A stretch of 62,448 nt of DNA from Succinimonas sp. (GTDB taxonomy: Bacteria > Pseudomonadota > Gammaproteobacteria > Enterobacterales > Succinivibrionaceae), in contig CAVGFV010000099.1 in the NCBI GenBank assembly GCA_963628765.1, positions 1-62,448 of the forward strand. Direction: 5' to 3'. This document shows, piece by piece, positions 12,528 to 58,835 of this stretch. A program made the translations under genes and the position numbers. The notes beneath the pieces were generated by a model. That model searched no databases. It saw only the letters and a program-made list of their open reading frames with translations, and was not told the DNA's origin. Position 1 is the stretch's first letter, and every line of letters starts with the position of its first letter.

Positions 12528-12602
12528 CTCTCCATAGTTAAATGGATATAACGGCCCCCTCCTAAGGGGCAGTTACAGGTTCGATTCCTGTTGGAGAGGC
12601 CA
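12528..12602 (+). tRNA. tRNA-Arg(CCT), argW-like
   Basis: Acceptor CTCTCCA/TGGAGAG, anticodon arm GCCCC-CTCCTAA-GGGGC, GGTTCGATTCC, encoded CCA. Confidence 0.97.
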
Positions 12603-15509: not shown

Positions 15510-15596
<87 letters not shown>

Positions 15597-24274: not shown

Positions 24275-27200
24275 TTAGTAAAGCTTAATCCAAGAAGATG
24301 TTCTAGTGCTTGGAAGTGTAGATGGGATTACATCTGTAGCAACTGGAGTTGCGCCATCTCTAGTTTGATCAGTATCATCAAGAGGAATATTTACTACAGG
24401 TTTTCCATCATGAATGGTCAAAACAGGAGACTTAGCAATTGCCTTATAAGTGGTTTCCTTCATAAGTCTACCTGCAACCCAATCCATTTCTATTGCAGAA
24501 GATGTACCGCCACCGCTACAAGCGTCACCGATATTAGGAGTATTGGTAGTCATGTAAAGCATATTACCAACTACTAATGGATCGGTGTAAGCACGTTCGC
24601 CAGTATCTCTCTTTTCATCTCCTTTAGTATCAAAGGAAACAAGATCAAAATACCAACCAAAATTCTTGGTAGCAGTATAACTAGAAGAAACCCTAGCGGT
24701 TCTTGTGTAAGTGGTATTACCTTCAGAATCAGTATTAGCAACTTTACTTATAACAAGTGGTTTCAAACAGTTCACAGTCACACTAGAATCACAACGTTTA
24801 ACAGGCTGTTTTGACCTTGCCATATCAGATACAGAGGCACTACCAAGATCTCTCAACATATAAATAGTCTGAGTATCATTATATTTGAAAGATACATCGT
24901 CAGAGTCATAGGTATATGTATATGAACCTGTACCAAAAATCAAACCAATACCATCTCCGTTAAAGTATCCAGCACCTGGAGTACCAGTAATCATCTGAGC
25001 ACGACCATTTGCGTCAACAGCATTGAAAATCACACTTGGATTTGGATTAAAGGCTTTTGTTTTTGAAGCACATGTTTCATTACCCCAGCATCTAACCTTA
25101 CTTTCCAATGCATTATTATTTAGATCGATCTTCCAGAAGTTTCCGAAGGTATCACCAAAATAAAGTGCTTGATAAAAACCATTAGTGTTCAAAGAAACAG
25201 CTTCGATCTTGGTCATGTCAGCCTTTCTGCCAGTACCCCAAGGATCAGAAGCTAACTTTTCATTTGCGGACATATCAGCATATGTTACAACACAAGGCTG
25301 TCTACCTTCTTGTAAAGTAGACTTATCAGCTTCATCTCCGAAACTACCATCAGCTTTCATCACATAGCACTTTTCATCAGCATCATTACCACGATAAAGC
25401 ATATTGACAGCAAAGAAACCAGCTTTCTCAGCTCCAATACCGCTACTGAAAAGTAGGTAAGGAACCGTTTCAGCGCTGTCACTTGAAGTACTAACTTCTA
25501 CTAAAGTAGGTGCATATTTATAGCTACCTGCAAATGGAACACCAATCTTTTCACCATCATGTTCGCCATTTTCGAGAGTACGAGGTTCAGAAAGTTCCCA
25601 TTTAAGCATATTTCTAGCAAAAGAAAGTTTTTCCTCTGGAGTCTGACTTGAAACGTCTGAAATTCCAGTAACATCAAGGAGGTAGCCACCTTTAATACCT
25701 GTTCCAAAGGTACCATAGAGGTAAGTCTTTGTTTGATTGTTGTTATTCTTTCCTATGTACACATTAGGCGTGCTATCAAAATACGGATAATGACCGTAAT
25801 CTTGAAGGGTTATCTTCTTAATCTCTGGAAGTACCTGTGATGGCAAGTAAGAAATTACAGGAGTCATGTCAGATGCTGATAGTATATGAAGCATACCATC
25901 ATTGGCACCTACAGCCACAAAACTAGAATTGCCATCAGTAAATGCTACGGCATCTGAGTTAACAATATCGCCAAGGATAAAGTGTTCGCCTGCAGCATCT
26001 TTTCTTTCACGTAGAGGAGTACCTTGAGAACCACGTCCACCACTAGTATTCAACGGAATACGTTTTGCACTATTTTCCTCGGTATTTAATCCCTCATAGG
26101 TATCATCACCAGCCATCCAACGGGCAAAGGCATTCATATACTGATATGATTCAGCATTATTCTGGCTATAATCATCACTTGATATTGAGCTACAAGAACC
26201 ATCTTTAAGAATGTCACTTATGATGCCACATGACAAGTTCTTAAATGCCGTACCTTCAGCACTAGTATCGCTATTATCTTTTGAATATAAACGATATACC
26301 TCGTTAGCATTTGGGTCATAGGTAAAGATGAATCTATCATCAACCTCTACACTTGCAAAGCCATCTGAAGCTCTTTTGGTACTTGAAGAAGTTATAGATT
26401 CATAATTATAACCACCATCAGAACCTACTTTGGCAGCTATTACATCACCCTTCCAAACAGATGGATCGTAAGTGGTTGCATATACAGTAGAACCAGTAGT
26501 AGTATTCTTTGTAACAGTAGAGAATCCTGAACCAGAATGTCCTGTCTTGTTAATTTGGTTAAGCATCTTCGCAACACCATCACGAAGTTTACTCATATTG
26601 GTTACTAGGAAGTAGTTAGATGGATCAGTTGTATCGCTAGCATCAACCTTACCACCTAAGCCATACTTAGCAGCATACCAAAGAGGGCTCTTTAACCAAT
26701 AGTTACCAGAATCAGAACTGGAAACCTTGAAAACACGACTAGAAATAGAGTTTCCATCAAGATATGTTTTGCGGTAATAGTCGCCCATCAATCTAAGAGA
26801 AGCAGTAAAGTTCCAAGTACTAGAAAAACGGGAATCCTTATCATGTCTTAACGTGCCTCTGCTTGCATAATATACTTCTTCTACAGGTTTTACATAATTT
26901 TTATAATAATCACTTATATTATTACTACTAATTGAGCTTCCATTTATTCTAAAATCATCAGGTCTCAATAATCCCGAAGGGTATCTACACCCTTCTGTTG
27001 ACTTATCAAAAGAGCGATTTGTAAATTGCTGACCTCTTGGGCAATTTATTAAAGACGAATCGTTTACTATGGTATCTAGCTCATATACATTATAGTAATT
27101 ATTAGCAGAATTTTCCGCTGTGGTTTTAGCTAAATCTACATAAACACCTGTATGGTCGACACCCGTTATCAAATAACCTGCATGTTGAGGAGCATACTTA

Positions 27201-29644
27201 TCTCCATCGACATGTCTTAAAGTCACGCGAACGTAATCGCCATCAGATCCTTTTAAAATTCTGTAACGATATTCAACCACCCAATCCATATCATAATCAG
27301 AACCATATTGGAAATCTTCATAATTGATTCTGAAAACACCTTCTTCATTATTTAAACTTTCAATATAAAAGTCTGCAACTTGATTGGTAGATATTACCTT
27401 ACGAGCATTGGTATCATCACCGCTACCATCACCTACAGTTTTAGCAAAAGGAATAATTGTAACATTTTTACCATTGACATCTATGTTAATTTCTGGAAGG
27501 TTTGGTTTCATTGCCACAACATAGGTTTGCATCTTAGGATCTACTGAAACACCTGTTGAAGGGTTTTTAAGATCTGATCTTAATGAATTTGATGCATAAT
27601 ATGATGCAACACCTGCAACGTTATAACTACCATGGCTGAAAGCTGCTGCTGGTGCAATACCTTCCACATCAGCTAAGTTATTTATATGCTTTAATGATGG
27701 AACATAAACATATGGATCTTGAGATTCGTCTACTCCGCCTACTTTTCCGACAATATATTCTCCCGCCTTAAGACCTTGCGAAACCTTATTTTTTAGCTCA
27801 TCTGTAATTGTGGTTGTATCGCTATCGAACGGACTCGCACCACCCCATCGACTGTCGTAATCAAATGAGACATTCTCATCTGCAATTAATAAGCTAACTG
27901 GCTTAGAACAATACTCAATGCCTAATGTTGTATACGGATCATTTGCCGTTACGTGCCCAATCCTCAAGCCAGTAGTAGTGTTTTTTTCATCACTCAAAAA
28001 TCGACTTTTACTATTTAGAGTCCCTTTAAAATATTGTGCACTTGCATATAGTAACTTAGATACTGGATTTCCCCAATCCTTACATTTGCCATTTTCCATT
28101 TTAGCAATGCGCTCACCTGCAAAATCTCGAGGGCAATCAGTGTATACACCGTCACCTGCATTACCATCATTTTTTTGCGCAATAGCCATTCTATCAATTG
28201 TTTTTATAAAACCACAATTTAAGTTAGAGTTTTCACACAAGACTTTATTATAAACAAAGTCCCCCAACACTTTATTGCTGCCATCACTTTCAGAAAGGTT
28301 AATTTCTTTACCAAAGTCATCTACTTCGGCACGCAAACCTGCTCCGGTTAAATTATTTGCCCAACTTCCTGTGATAAGTCCAAAACGAATTCTTGGAGAG
28401 GCACCTTCACCATACTGTTGTAAAAGGCCTACTGGTTGCCATGAAGGATTATCTCTTGTACCATAATTTTTACAGTCATCACTAGAATGGAATTCTGTAG
28501 TACAGACAACAACGTTCAAATCGGCTTGACGTATTTTTTTATAATCTGAATATCTCTCATCCCAACTAACACCTTGTCCTCCAGAAAGTGTTCTTAAGTG
28601 TTTTCCTACATCATCAAATGGTACCCAATTGATTTTTGTACTTAAATTTCCACTTCCGCTATAGTCAGGACCTGCAATACCAACTGTATCTGCCATTGTT
28701 TGACGGCTAACCCAGTCCCAAATATAATTTTTAGAAGTATCACCATTGGACTCAATACCAGGCATACCGGCATTTGCCACTAGACCGACTCTGAAGTAAT
28801 TTGATTGTTGAATACCATTACCATCATATGATGCTAAAGCAAAAAAGTATGCCTGTTCGCCTCTAGTATCAGGTAATCCTGTAAAATCAGATACCTTAAA
28901 TTGCTCTTCATACATTTTTCCACTAAGCACTTTTCCCCAAGCATGAGAGTCTCTCAATACTCGAGAATGCTTTAAAATAGTTGCATAACGCTCTGTCCCT
29001 GAGGAGTCCGTATAAACATATCTTGTAGGAATACTGCTAGAAGTTGGAAGTGCATTATTTACAAGTCTCGCACCACCATAAAGAACTTTTCTAATGGCAT
29101 CTATTCGAGTAGTTGACATGTAATTTAAAAAATTACCTAACCATTGTTCTCCAGCATTACAAATTTTTACAGTTTTACTTTGGCCATCCCAAATTTTCAA
29201 TGAGCCACTTTTGTCGGCAGCATGGCTAACAGGACGCCAATAGCCAAAATGCATCAACCCTGTCTCACTGTTTTTTTCTTCTGGAGCATTAATTAAATTT
29301 TCTCTTCCTCCTTGATAAACGTAACAAAAATCAGGGTCAAAAATACCTTCATACCTAATAGAAGGATCGTACATAATATCTAAGGTACTATTTCCATCGA
29401 TATCCGTTGTATCATCGTATGCTTCTGAAAATAACCCGTGCTCACGACCTAGTACAATCATTACCGACGGTGCTACAGTCATACCTGCAACATTCATAGG
29501 TCCTGTTGCTACAGTACCATTTTGAATTTTAGATGTTTCGTCTGCTGTCATCTCAGCGGTGGCATAACTAGCCACACCGAGTCCCATAATCCCTGACAGC
29601 ATGGCTAATCCCATATGCCATGAAAGTTTTGATAGCTTAAACAT
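24275..29644 (-). CDS. pilY1: Type IV pilus tip adhesin PilY1/PilC-like protein (1789 aa)
   Basis: Signal peptide, GNFLNY…RIDAIRKVLYGG, PLWYAAKYG, LGDIVNS…VGANDGMLH, YFGD..GN.WK.DL, FGTG, GWYFDL…GER beta-propeller motifs. Confidence 0.9.
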   Translation of the reverse strand: MFKLSKLSWHMGLAMLSGIMGLGVASYATAEMTADETSKIQNGTVATGPMNVAGMTVAPSVMIVLGREHGLFSEAYDDTTDIDGNSTLDIMYDPSIRYEGIFDPDFCYVYQGGRENLINAPEEKNSETGLMHFGYWRPVSHAADKSGSLKIWDGQSKTVKICNAGEQWLGNFLNYMSTTRIDAIRKVLYGGARLVNNALPTSSSIPTRYVYTDSSGTERYATILKHSRVLRDSHAWGKVLSGKMYEEQFKVSDFTGLPDTRGEQAYFFALASYDGNGIQQSNYFRVGLVANAGMPGIESNGDTSKNYIWDWVSRQTMADTVGIAGPDYSGSGNLSTKINWVPFDDVGKHLRTLSGGQGVSWDERYSDYKKIRQADLNVVVCTTEFHSSDDCKNYGTRDNPSWQPVGLLQQYGEGASPRIRFGLITGSWANNLTGAGLRAEVDDFGKEINLSESDGSNKVLGDFVYNKVLCENSNLNCGFIKTIDRMAIAQKNDGNAGDGVYTDCPRDFAGERIAKMENGKCKDWGNPVSKLLYASAQYFKGTLNSKSRFLSDEKNTTTGLRIGHVTANDPYTTLGIEYCSKPVSLLIADENVSFDYDSRWGGASPFDSDTTTITDELKNKVSQGLKAGEYIVGKVGGVDESQDPYVYVPSLKHINNLADVEGIAPAAAFSHGSYNVAGVASYYASNSLRSDLKNPSTGVSVDPKMQTYVVAMKPNLPEINIDVNGKNVTIIPFAKTVGDGSGDDTNARKVISTNQVADFYIESLNNEEGVFRINYEDFQYGSDYDMDWVVEYRYRILKGSDGDYVRVTLRHVDGDKYAPQHAGYLITGVDHTGVYVDLAKTTAENSANNYYNVYELDTIVNDSSLINCPRGQQFTNRSFDKSTEGCRYPSGLLRPDDFRINGSSISSNNISDYYKNYVKPVEEVYYASRGTLRHDKDSRFSSTWNFTASLRLMGDYYRKTYLDGNSISSRVFKVSSSDSGNYWLKSPLWYAAKYGLGGKVDASDTTDPSNYFLVTNMSKLRDGVAKMLNQINKTGHSGSGFSTVTKNTTTGSTVYATTYDPSVWKGDVIAAKVGSDGGYNYESITSSSTKRASDGFASVEVDDRFIFTYDPNANEVYRLYSKDNSDTSAEGTAFKNLSCGIISDILKDGSCSSISSDDYSQNNAESYQYMNAFARWMAGDDTYEGLNTEENSAKRIPLNTSGGRGSQGTPLRERKDAAGEHFILGDIVNSDAVAFTDGNSSFVAVGANDGMLHILSASDMTPVISYLPSQVLPEIKKITLQDYGHYPYFDSTPNVYIGKNNNNQTKTYLYGTFGTGIKGGYLLDVTGISDVSSQTPEEKLSFARNMLKWELSEPRTLENGEHDGEKIGVPFAGSYKYAPTLVEVSTSSDSAETVPYLLFSSGIGAEKAGFFAVNMLYRGNDADEKCYVMKADGSFGDEADKSTLQEGRQPCVVTYADMSANEKLASDPWGTGRKADMTKIEAVSLNTNGFYQALYFGDTFGNFWKIDLNNNALESKVRCWGNETCASKTKAFNPNPSVIFNAVDANGRAQMITGTPGAGYFNGDGIGLIFGTGSYTYTYDSDDVSFKYNDTQTIYMLRDLGSASVSDMARSKQPVKRCDSSVTVNCLKPLVISKVANTDSEGNTTYTRTARVSSSYTATKNFGWYFDLVSFDTKGDEKRDTGERAYTDPLVVGNMLYMTTNTPNIGDACSGGGTSSAIEMDWVAGRLMKETTYKAIAKSPVLTIHDGKPVVNIPLDDTDQTRDGATPVATDVIPSTLPSTRTSSWIKLY

Positions 29645-37490: not shown

Positions 37491-37754
37491 TTGGCAAATA
37501 TCAAGTCTGCAAAGAAGCGTGTTATCACCTCTGAAAGAAATCGCGTTCACAATGTTGCTAAGCGTTCTGAAATGCGTACTGCTGTTAAAAAGGTTCTAGC
37601 TCTTGTTCAAGCTGGTGATAAAGAAGGTGCAAAGGCTGCATTCGTTAGAGCAGAAGTTCTTCTTGACCGCGCTGCTACTAAAGGCCTTATCCACATCAAC
37701 AAGGCTGCACGTCATAAATCAAATCTCAGCAAGGCTATCAAAGCTTTAGCTTAA
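37491..37754 (+). CDS. rpsT: 30S ribosomal protein S20 (TTG start)
   Basis: ANIKSAKKR…[20 protein letters not shown]. Confidence 0.99.
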
Positions 37755-37778: not shown

Positions 37779-37805
37779 AAAGGCTTCCTGCGGGAAGCTT
37801 TTTTT
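37779..37805 (+). terminator. rpsT terminator
   Basis: gcttcc-tgcg-ggaagc followed by T7. Confidence 0.85.
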
Positions 37806-37986: not shown

Positions 37987-38013
37987 GAACTTTTTTATTA
38001 GGTTCTTATCTAA
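37987..38013 (+). promoter_or_regulatory. sigmaE (RpoE)-type promoter 1
   Basis: GAACTT(37987-92)-N16-TCTAA(38009-13) with an AT-rich upstream tract. Confidence 0.75.
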
Positions 38014-38018
38014 ATAAA

Positions 38019-38098
38019 CAGATTAGGACGTGAATCTCATATCTTAGTCTCCTTCATAATATATTTTCTTCGCCCATATACTTGTATATGGGTTTTTT
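38019..38098 (+). ncRNA. Candidate sigmaE-dependent sRNA 1 (about 80 nt)
   Basis: 5' hairpin agattagga/tcttagtct, unpaired ccttcataatatattttcttc, terminator cccatata-cttg-tatatggg-T6. Confidence 0.65.
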
Positions 38099-38224
38099 CT
38101 TTCTATATTCTTCAATTTCAAAATTTTCCCACCAAAAAAATTGCTGATCCTTTTCAAATAACTACTTCAAGGTTTAGCCAAAACGCGATTTATATCAAAA
38201 TTTAAGATTTTTTATATTTTTAAT

Positions 38225-38251
38225 GAACTTTTTACATGTTTTATACTCTAA
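38225..38251 (+). promoter_or_regulatory. sigmaE (RpoE)-type promoter 2
   Basis: GAACTT(38225-30)-N16-TCTAA(38247-51) with an AT-rich upstream tract. Confidence 0.75.
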
Positions 38252-38256
38252 ACTAA

Positions 38257-38331
38257 TACCTGCGAAACGAAGATTTTATCTTTGTTTTTCATTCCGTGTT
38301 TTTCGGTCATCTGTAAAGGTGACCGCTTTTT
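38257..38331 (+). ncRNA. Candidate sigmaE-dependent sRNA 2 (about 75 nt)
   Basis: 5' hairpin gaaacgaagat/atctttgtttt, unpaired tcattccgtgttttt, terminator cggtcatct-gtaa-aggtgaccg-cttttt. Confidence 0.62.
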
Positions 38332-38447
38332 AGCGCGGTTTCTCCACGACTAGTCTAAGCCCTAGAATAAATTAACTTTTGCGGTATGTAGTGAATAACC
38401 GCACAGGACTAAACTATTAAAACGACAATATTTTGAGTTTTACCATT

Positions 38448-38480
38448 GCCATCCTCTTGTGCTACAAGAGGATGGCTTTT
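38448..38480 (+). terminator. Strong orphan terminator, possibly ending a third RNA
   Basis: Perfect 13-bp stem gccatcctcttgt/acaagaggatggc with tttt on the + strand only. Confidence 0.65.
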
Positions 38481-38619: not shown

Positions 38620-39576
38620 TTAGCAGTAACCGTACTGCATAAGTCTGTTATAACGGTTTTCTAGAAGCTGTTCTGCAGATTCTAGCTTAAGTTGGCTAAG
38701 ATCTGTAACAATACGGCTCTTTAAGTTTTGTGCCATCTTCTTATAGTCTCGATGTGCGCCACCGAGAGGTTCTTCTACAATATTGTCGATAAGCTTAAGT
38801 TTCTTAAGATCCTTGGCTGTGATATTCATAGCTTCAGCAGCTAAAGGAGCCTTATCAGCACTCTTCCAAAGAATAGAAGCACAACCTTCTGGAGAAATTA
38901 CTGAATAGGTAGCATATTGAAGCATGTTCACGCGGTCACCCACACCAATGGCTAAAGCACCACCAGAACCACCTTCGCCAATAACTGTACACACAATAGG
39001 TACACGAAGAGAGCTCATAACCTTAAGGTTTCTCGCAATAGCTTCTGCTTGACCTCTTTCTTCTGCACCAACACCTGGATATGCACCCGGGGTATCAATA
39101 AAGGTAATGATAGGCATTTTGAATTTTTCAGCAAGTTGCATTAATCTCAAAGCCTTACGATAACCTTCTGGGCGTGGCATACCAAAATTACGCATGGTAC
39201 GAGTTTGTACATCTCTACCCTTTTGATGTCCGATAACCATTACGGATTCACCCTCAAGACGTGCAATACCACCAACTATAGCACTATCATCGGCATAAGC
39301 ACGATCGCCATGAAGCTCTTCAAAATCAGTAAAAATTTCCTTGATATAATCAAGAGTATACGGACGTAGCGGGTGACGAGATAGTCTTGAAATCTGCCAA
39401 GCACCAAGATCTGTAAAGGTCTTCTTGGTCATTTCTTCTGCTTTCTTTTCAAGAGACTTTATCTCATCTGAAAAATCTACACTTTCACCGATATTGTTGC
39501 TGACATGCTTGAGCTCCTCAATATGAGCTAAAAGCTCTGCTATAGGTTGCTCAAAATCCAAATAATCAATATTCAT
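38620..39576 (-). CDS. accA: Acetyl-CoA carboxylase carboxyltransferase alpha
   Basis: [35 protein letters not shown]. Confidence 0.99.
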
Positions 39577-58682: not shown

Positions 58683-58760
58683 TGGGGTTAAGCCTCCACC
58701 GCACTGTTTATGAGACCTTGTGGCACCCCACATAAACATTGTTGTAACGGTGTGTGTATT
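58683..58760 (-). ncRNA. rpsB leader (t44 / S2 autoregulatory RNA)
   Basis: Reverse complement ACACACACCG…GGGGTGCC…CGGTGGAGGCTTAACCCC matches the conserved gammaproteobacterial S2 leader. Confidence 0.85.
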
Positions 58761-58835
58761 AGAAATGAACCGCTTTAATTTGAAGAATTTTATTTTTCAA
58801 AAACAGCAGTACCCCGGTACCTCCGAGGTACACGC

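Follow-up and report, generated by a model that had tools for sequence, protein, structure and literature searches.

MicA and RybB are small RNAs (sRNAs) of about 70-80 nt that are transcribed from sigmaE promoters and repress outer-membrane protein (OMP) mRNAs, including lamB (PMC1804206, PMC4618604, PMC6694218). In Vibrio, MicV and VrrA form a sigmaE sRNA pair with shared and distinct targets (PMC6694218), and MicL, which derives from the 3' region of cutC, targets lpp (PMC13501541). Rna01 of Actinobacillus pleuropneumoniae is lineage-specific, lies at sbcB-eriC, has the promoter GAACTT-16-TCTTA with 6 bp from the -10 box to the start, and is predicted to pair at OMP ribosome-binding sites (PMC9577009). 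FoxI and FoxJ of Fusobacterium make up a two-RNA sigmaE noncoding arm that represses the major porin (PMC11005410). Pilus and DNA-uptake machinery is repressed by sRNAs pairing at the translation start, namely Arp in Acinetobacter baumannii, which is BfmR-linked and acts on pilA, and RocR in Legionella, which acts on comEA; neither is described as sigmaE-driven or pilM-targeting in the accessible text of PMC12338739. Sibling sRNAs are related genes found in tandem (PMC4211561). It is already known that lineage-specific sigmaE sRNAs recur (Rna01, FoxI/FoxJ) and that an sRNA can repress a pilus gene (Arp on pilA).

The DNA analysed here, referred to as the window, is a stretch of 62,448 nt from Succinimonas sp. 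(Succinivibrionaceae; GenBank assembly GCA_963628765.1, contig CAVGFV010000099.1). Two putative sRNA genes, RNA1 and RNA2, lie between rpsT and accA (Table 1). RNA1 is like MicA and RybB in promoter type, size and predicted lamB repression. However, MicA and RybB are located at luxS-gshA and ybjK-ybjL (PMC1804206 for MicA), and the predicted seed of RNA1 is, unlike theirs, an internal linker following a 5' hairpin. As lamB is a target shared by MicA and RybB, RNA1 is predicted to act like them, while falling outside either family. Identity with MicA was rejected on the basis of the flanking genes, which are rpsT and accA and not luxS-gshA, and identity with MicL because lpp ranked only 557 (RNA1) and 682 (RNA2) of 1750 predicted targets.

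Compared with MicV and VrrA, RNA1 and RNA2 are adjacent genes with differing seeds and without CRCUGCUUUU; 'pil' does not occur in the main text of the MicV/VrrA paper (PMC6694218). The likeness to Rna01 is in lineage restriction, promoter layout and predicted pairing at OMP starts, though at another locus, and the 6 bp spacing reported for Rna01 is the one predicted for both RNAs here (PMC9577009). FoxI and FoxJ differ in belonging to another phylum, in their C-stretch seeds and in a host that is without the common Hfq/ProQ chaperones (PMC11005410). The tandem arrangement recalls sibling sRNAs, but here one to four units share a promoter type and carry up to three different cores (PMC4211561). 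In a search of the main text of mostly open-access papers, we found no sRNA for Succinivibrionaceae and no sigmaE sRNA pairing with pilM. New here are two unlisted families, a tandem, expandable array and, probably, a sigmaE-to-pilM link.

The first-pass annotation of this DNA had pointed to an 865 bp ORF-free gap between rpsT and accA, at the end of the rseP-bamA-skp-lpx cluster, with two identical GAACTT-N16-TCTAA boxes 238 bp apart. This description was borne out. The 865 bp between the rpsT stop (37754) and the accA stop (38620) contain no ORF reaching 60 aa, accA is the last gene of the cluster, and exact matches to the box begin at 37987 and 38225. Terminator-like sites numbered four, where 0.9 would be expected.

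Table 1. Features of the rpsT-accA interval, with positions given in the window; RNA ends and structures are predicted
Feature	Position	Strand	Details
rpsT (S20)	37491..37754	+	Left flank; own terminator 37779-37802
sigmaE-type promoter box 1	37987..38013	+	-35 GAACTT 37987-37992; -10 TCTAA 38009-38013
RNA1, predicted 79 nt	38020..38098	+	Start from C|A step 6 nt past -10 box
RNA1 5' hairpin	38020..38050	+	Sequence and length differ between genera
RNA1 unpaired linker	38051..38071	+	Core UUCAUAAUA invariant in 9/9 aligned copies; predicted seed
RNA1 intrinsic terminator and U-tract	38072..38098	+	Hairpin 38072-38093, CUUG loop
sigmaE-type promoter box 2	38225..38251	+	-35 38225-38230; -10 38247-38251
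RNA2, predicted 74 nt	38258..38331	+	Start from T|A step
RNA2 5' hairpin	38261..38291	+	5' arm masks most of seed
RNA2 invariant core	38279..38299	+	38280-38295 is the 16-nt perfect complement of pilM codons 3-8
RNA2 intrinsic terminator and U-tract	38304..38331	+	Hairpin 38304-38325, GUAA loop
Third strong hairpin and short U-tract	38448..38480	+	Hairpin 38448-38476; no sigmaE box upstream
accA	38620..39576	-	Right flank; last gene of rseP-bamA-skp-lpx-rnhB-dnaE-accA cluster in the source genome

A third strong terminator had also been claimed. The hairpin is present on the plus strand, but it has no sigmaE box and does not make a third sigmaE unit. A third sigmaE RNA at 38334-38480 was considered and rejected, because the TCTAA at 38354 has no -35 box to go with it and the copies within the genus have only an 8-nt motif and a sequence-divergent hairpin in common. 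Nothing resembling this hairpin was found downstream of RNA2 in relatives beyond the genus. It probably serves as a reserve terminator or insulates against the converging accA.

Two exact boxes compare with 0.07 expected per window, and two or more were found in none of 100 shuffles. However, the bare box is not in excess genome-wide at spacing 16 (10 matches, with 1-14 at other spacings), and the case therefore rests on context and conservation rather than on box counts. Among the 28 relaxed boxes listed, these two alone lie between genes and have a terminator behind them. Aligned copies from relatives agree in boxes and cores but differ in spacers, loops and the tops of the terminators. In the close clade, 26 of 27 units (counted by hand, one spurious row excluded) have a pyrimidine-purine (Y|R) step 6 nt past the -10 box, and from this step the starts are predicted at 38020 (C|A) and 38258 (T|A). 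In genus g9 units, the step is often displaced by one base.

The source genome encodes the machinery that such promoters imply, and the presence of rpoE and hfq, which had been left for confirmation, was established together with that of rseAB. An identical exact box lies 73 nt upstream of rpoE (C98:3195; TIGR02939 equivalog, above cut-off), with rseA- and rseB-like genes downstream of it. Consensus-like sigmaE boxes also precede two genes that we take, from sequence motifs, to be degP-like and rpoH-like. There are two Hfq-family genes in this one small genome (G000:C185:12572-12760 and G000:C76:358-702; L023, L024), the second being divergent with an N-terminal extension, and csrA is present. 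An exact sigmaE box is also found at G000:C74:120, before an ORF for a 137-aa secreted proline/arginine-rich protein of unassigned family.

Both predicted RNAs are more stably folded than their shuffled counterparts (z -4.8 for RNA1 and -5.1 for RNA2, with 0/200 shuffles as stable in each case). RNA1 has the layout first described for it, a hairpin, an open linker and a terminator with a CUUG loop. For RNA2, the hairpin and the GUAA-capped terminator were likewise found, but most of the UUCAU motif that had been placed in an open linker is base-paired, in the lowest part of the 5' hairpin stem. The RNA2 5' helix has four one-sided changes, all of them in the masking 5' arm, and the seed arm is invariant. 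Covariation in RNA2 was not significant (50/500 shuffles). Its hairpin loop is A/U-rich, with a length of between about 3 and 19 nt, and opening the seed would cost 9.4 kcal/mol.

MicA and RybB have Rfam models. An Rfam scan of the gap gave no gathering-level match, the seven weak ones being far under the cut-off and terminator-only in appearance, and the loci of six relatives also gave none, which upholds the suggestion that the RNAs are not in a listed family. The reported lack of the RybB/MicV/VrrA seed CRCUGCUUUU was confirmed, as neither this seed nor shorter versions of it occur on either strand. When the rpsT-accA interval of relatives was checked, both units were found to be kept in Succinivibrionaceae-type genomes. 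The reading of the locus as lineage-specific and sigmaE-type is thus supported by box conservation, variable spacers, invariant cores, the Y|R step and the presence of rpoE, rseAB and hfq. On these sequence features, RNA1 and RNA2 are very probably sigmaE sRNA genes, and the locus appears to be an undescribed, lineage-specific sigmaE-type sRNA pair of rumen and gut bacteria. RNA1 and RNA2 are two distinct families, with different predicted targets.

The RNA2 core with an exact box was found in 11 of 98 family genomes, and a covariance model detected RNA2 in 14 of the 98 (E<1e-13), in genera g1, g11, g14 and g8; the -35 box is altered in three of the 14 copies. Seven weak matches to the model (E about 0.02) were not counted as RNA2, being promoter-terminator units of other kinds. 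Across the whole GTDB scan, the 24-nt RNA2 core was found in 13 records, 10 titled Succinimonas, Ruminobacter or Succinivibrionaceae and three only uncultured Enterobacterales or proteobacterium. RNA1-type units (core UUCAUAAUA or close) are present in at least 24 genomes, 16 of the close clade and eight of genus g9; this is a lower bound, for which the neighbourhood of rpsT was taken in from 40 additional genomes. Outside the family, one of 371 genomes fits a relaxed RNA1 pattern, with no terminator after it, and as there were three control matches this was attributed to chance.

The units occur in arrays of one to four in tandem. There are two RNA1 units and one RNA2 in G011, three RNA1 units in G070, and one other unit with three RNA1 units in G101. 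In G062 and G063, a third unit type with a sigmaE box and the core UUUUCUCCUUCA (L080 and L074, respectively) is located between RNA1 and RNA2. Read by eye, it has UUGUUUUUC or UUUUC in common with RNA2 and CUCCUUCA in common with RNA1, and these shared motifs hint at a common ancestry of the three. A unit similar to the third type lies upstream of an ompA-like gene in G111 (L127). Further sigmaE-box units with other cores, e.g. UUUACAUCCCAUA, were seen in g9 and g15 (L083, L090, L104, L109, L254 and L129), mostly at the same locus as RNA1 and RNA2, with up to four units in G101. Genus g9 also has a conserved unit of sigmaE box, hairpin and terminator between genes that we take, from motifs, to be metY-like and sod-like (G078, L128; G082, L130; G065, L131; G066, L133; also G067).

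For target prediction, 1752 genes and their starts were called using an in-house script. Among these, lamB (LamB identified by Pfam) gives the best hybrid with the RNA1 linker, at -22.6 kcal/mol (mean -8.1, sd 2.8), and the pairing spans the Shine-Dalgarno (SD) motif, the AUG and codon 2. With accessibility weighted in, the ranks among 1750 genes were 1 for a porin, 2 for an OEP channel, 8 for LamB, 11 for a Porin_1 protein and 19 for a TonB-dependent receptor; several top-ranked outer-membrane genes were identified on account of their rank, and an enrichment p-value is therefore not given. Porins were identified by Porin_1 matches and PDB porin sequence matches (the latter for rank 1), and the Porin_4 profile had no match in the source genome. 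Of the 1750 ranks, 570-1421 went to three other barrel-type candidates and BamA, and 235 to pilQ. When each genome's own linker was used, lamB was in the top 0.1 % in all nine genomes scored (12 loci given, three unparsed), and seven of 16 porin genes were in the top 2 % and four in the lower half, the background for these relatives being the leaders of the source genome. In a 7x7 matrix of RNA1 by lamB, cognate pairs scored better than permuted ones (p 0.008), though the genomes are kin and a genome's own pair is not always the best cell. The U-rich anti-SD/anti-AUG linker suits many AT-rich leaders, which counts against specificity. On this complementarity, RNA1 is likely to repress lamB and porins. 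No canonical OmpA was found in the source genome, where three PF00691 matches are otherwise assigned and are read by us, from sequence, as presumably Pal, MotB and a MotY-like protein; as the assembly is only 97 % complete, the absence of OmpA is not established.

Repression of OMP mRNAs, as by known RpoE sRNAs, fits the RNA1 linker and the lamB/porin starts but does not carry over to RNA2, for which the best complement is pilM and not an OMP gene. Against OMP starts, RNA2 ranked lamB 1264, porin 1323 and lpp 682 of 1750, and none stands out. The longest perfect complement of RNA2 in the 2.2-Mb genome is 16 nt long and occurs once, in pilM (G000:C84:2947-2962), which is also the best RNA2 hybrid of the 1752 genes. 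This is the first gene of pilMNOPQ in the locus mrcA / pilMNOPQ-aroKB, and its start was set at the methionine of MAGMK on the basis of the distance to the SD in relatives. At its 3' end, the RNA2 core complements the SD motif of pilM, so that a second register, of about equal energy, pairs all 21 core bases. The 21-nt core can be paired in full and without mismatch on one pilM mRNA in six of the seven RNA2 genomes scored.

In the 98 genomes, a 16-nt pattern with two wobble positions matched only 14 RNA2 genes and 12 pilM genes, with no control matches, although the pattern was derived from the sequences it was counted in and the genomes are kin. pilM was detected in 25 of the 98 genomes, among them 13 of the 14 RNA2 genomes, and neither RNA2 nor a pilM match was found in 72. 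Substitutions in the pilM site are mostly A-to-G opposite U and hence G-U-compatible. Opposite the single G of RNA2, the 13 RNA2 genomes all have C, and two of the three close genomes in which RNA2 was not found have T. A well-conserved 5' coding end is not peculiar to pilM within the clade, as 18 of 21 nt are invariant in pilM, compared with 18 in lpp, 17 in rpsT and 14 in pilN. A complement of at least 16 nt was obtained with 26 of 2000 shuffled cores (p about 0.013), the two-block score was reached by 17 of 1000, and an equally strong best hybrid was found in four of 20. When opening costs are included, pilM is at rank 27 of 1750 for RNA2.

Three genomes in which no RNA2 was found, G009, G013 and G024, retain an almost unchanged pilM site; the rpsT contig of G013 stops at the locus and the region contains N in G024. 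RNA2 is present with a mismatched pilM site in G011 and with no pilM match in G063. The PilM tree does not settle the order of the genera, and RNA2 loss therefore cannot be placed on it. Overall, the complementarity makes it somewhat probable that RNA2 represses pilM. A separate candidate, lpp as a target of the RNA2 5' end, was dropped because the short match is lost in five of 10 close lpp genes.

In each of the 25 pilM loci, the leader (G000:C84:2926-2938 and L171-L195) has GCACGGAUGC, or a sequence differing from it by one base, across the SD, which we take to fit the CsrA-site consensus. Nine of 17 genera were positive with the pilM query and none of the 44 genus g9 genomes was, which suggests that retention of type IV pili is patchy across the family. 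In the window, the minus strand at 24275-29644 encodes a 1789-aa secreted protein that, by eye, we presume to resemble a PilY1-type pilus adhesin.

From the boxes, folds, conservation and complementarity that the data provide, we infer a mechanism that we consider fairly probable as a whole, in which two sigmaE-transcribed, Hfq-type sRNAs block translation, RNA1 that of lamB and porins and RNA2 that of pilM. Envelope stress would release RpoE from RseA, RpoE would initiate both RNAs 6 nt past the -10 box, and Hfq would assist pairing. The open 21-nt linker of RNA1 would occlude the SD, AUG and codon 2 of lamB/porin mRNAs and so block initiation. RNA2 would nucleate through its exposed AUUCC, with the pilM mRNA stripping off the G-U-rich masking arm, and the resulting duplex of about 18-21 bp would cover codons 3-8, the near-equal register adding the SD motif. 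The outcome would be a stressed envelope with a lower load of barrel proteins and of pilus and secretin. A broader version has perhaps an even chance of being right, namely that Succinivibrionaceae have their own sigmaE sRNA arm in the form of an expandable array, where the bamA-lpx cluster ends, of duplicating, seed-changing promoter-hairpin-terminator cassettes, in which RNA2 is a dedicated, self-masked switch that turns off the pilus/secretin operon at pilM during envelope stress and is opened only by pilM mRNA.

Both RNAs could be sigmaE sRNAs and the match of RNA2 to pilM nevertheless due to chance, with the exposed linker AUUCCGUGUUUU or the 5' end of RNA2 acting on other mRNAs and the RNA2 hairpin kept for stability or protein binding. 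We regard this as doubtful, if worth serious consideration. It draws on the shuffle p values (about 0.013-0.017) and the unexceptional energy of the best hit, on the occlusion of the seed, on the 26 genes that stand above pilM once accessibility is counted and on the pilM site kept in three genomes without detectable RNA2. Against a chance match, the seed arm is constant and the masking arm variable, and the core pairs without mismatch in nearly all genomes scored. Nor did the exposed linker lead to another target, as its exact 11-nt complement gave eight non-self matches in five relatives, with no gene in common. A variant of our preferred mechanism, which overlaps it in probability and is itself unlikely, is that RNA2 does pair with pilM but after processing in the A/U-rich loop to a 3' fragment, or through mRNA cleavage or interplay with CsrA. 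The size range of that loop, the universal GCACGGAUGC-type motif in pilM leaders together with csrA, and the complementarity of UCCGUGU in RNA2 to this motif are consistent with such a variant, though dimer folding predicts net-gain binding by the full-length RNA2 already.

That the units are sRNA genes at all could also be questioned. Their position where a converging operon ends, and the strong terminators within them, would be expected of cis elements, i.e. attenuated leaders, or antisense promoters and terminators that shield rpsT from the accA/tilS cluster converging on it. However, there is no downstream same-strand gene, the conserved part is the unpaired linker and not the stems, and the units are tandemly duplicated and also found at other loci, and we consider a cis role very unlikely. 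Least probable, to the point of near-dismissal, is that the units are small-peptide genes or parts of a type I toxin-antitoxin system. A five-codon minus-strand ORF (MRFTS) with an SD is antisense to RNA1, but its ATG sits in the variable hairpin and, by eye, is missing in aligned same-genus copies, and no conserved small hydrophobic ORF adjoins the units.

RNA1 and RNA2 are the first candidate regulatory RNAs that this literature search found for a major rumen and gut bacterial family, and the base-pair predictions are concrete. If correct, the porin-silencing arm of sigmaE would have arisen independently once more with RNA1, converging on lamB, and RNA2 would extend the sigmaE arm to type IV pilus assembly. 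A sigmaE sRNA would then govern piliation (adhesion, twitching, DNA uptake, phage receptor) and not porins. Arrays of one to four cassettes with duplicated and diverged seeds also offer a natural series on the origin of sRNA seeds. Elsewhere in the window, Rfam identified tRNAs at 12528-12599 and 15513-15596, and a t44 RNA, at the gathering threshold, on the minus strand at 58687-58774.
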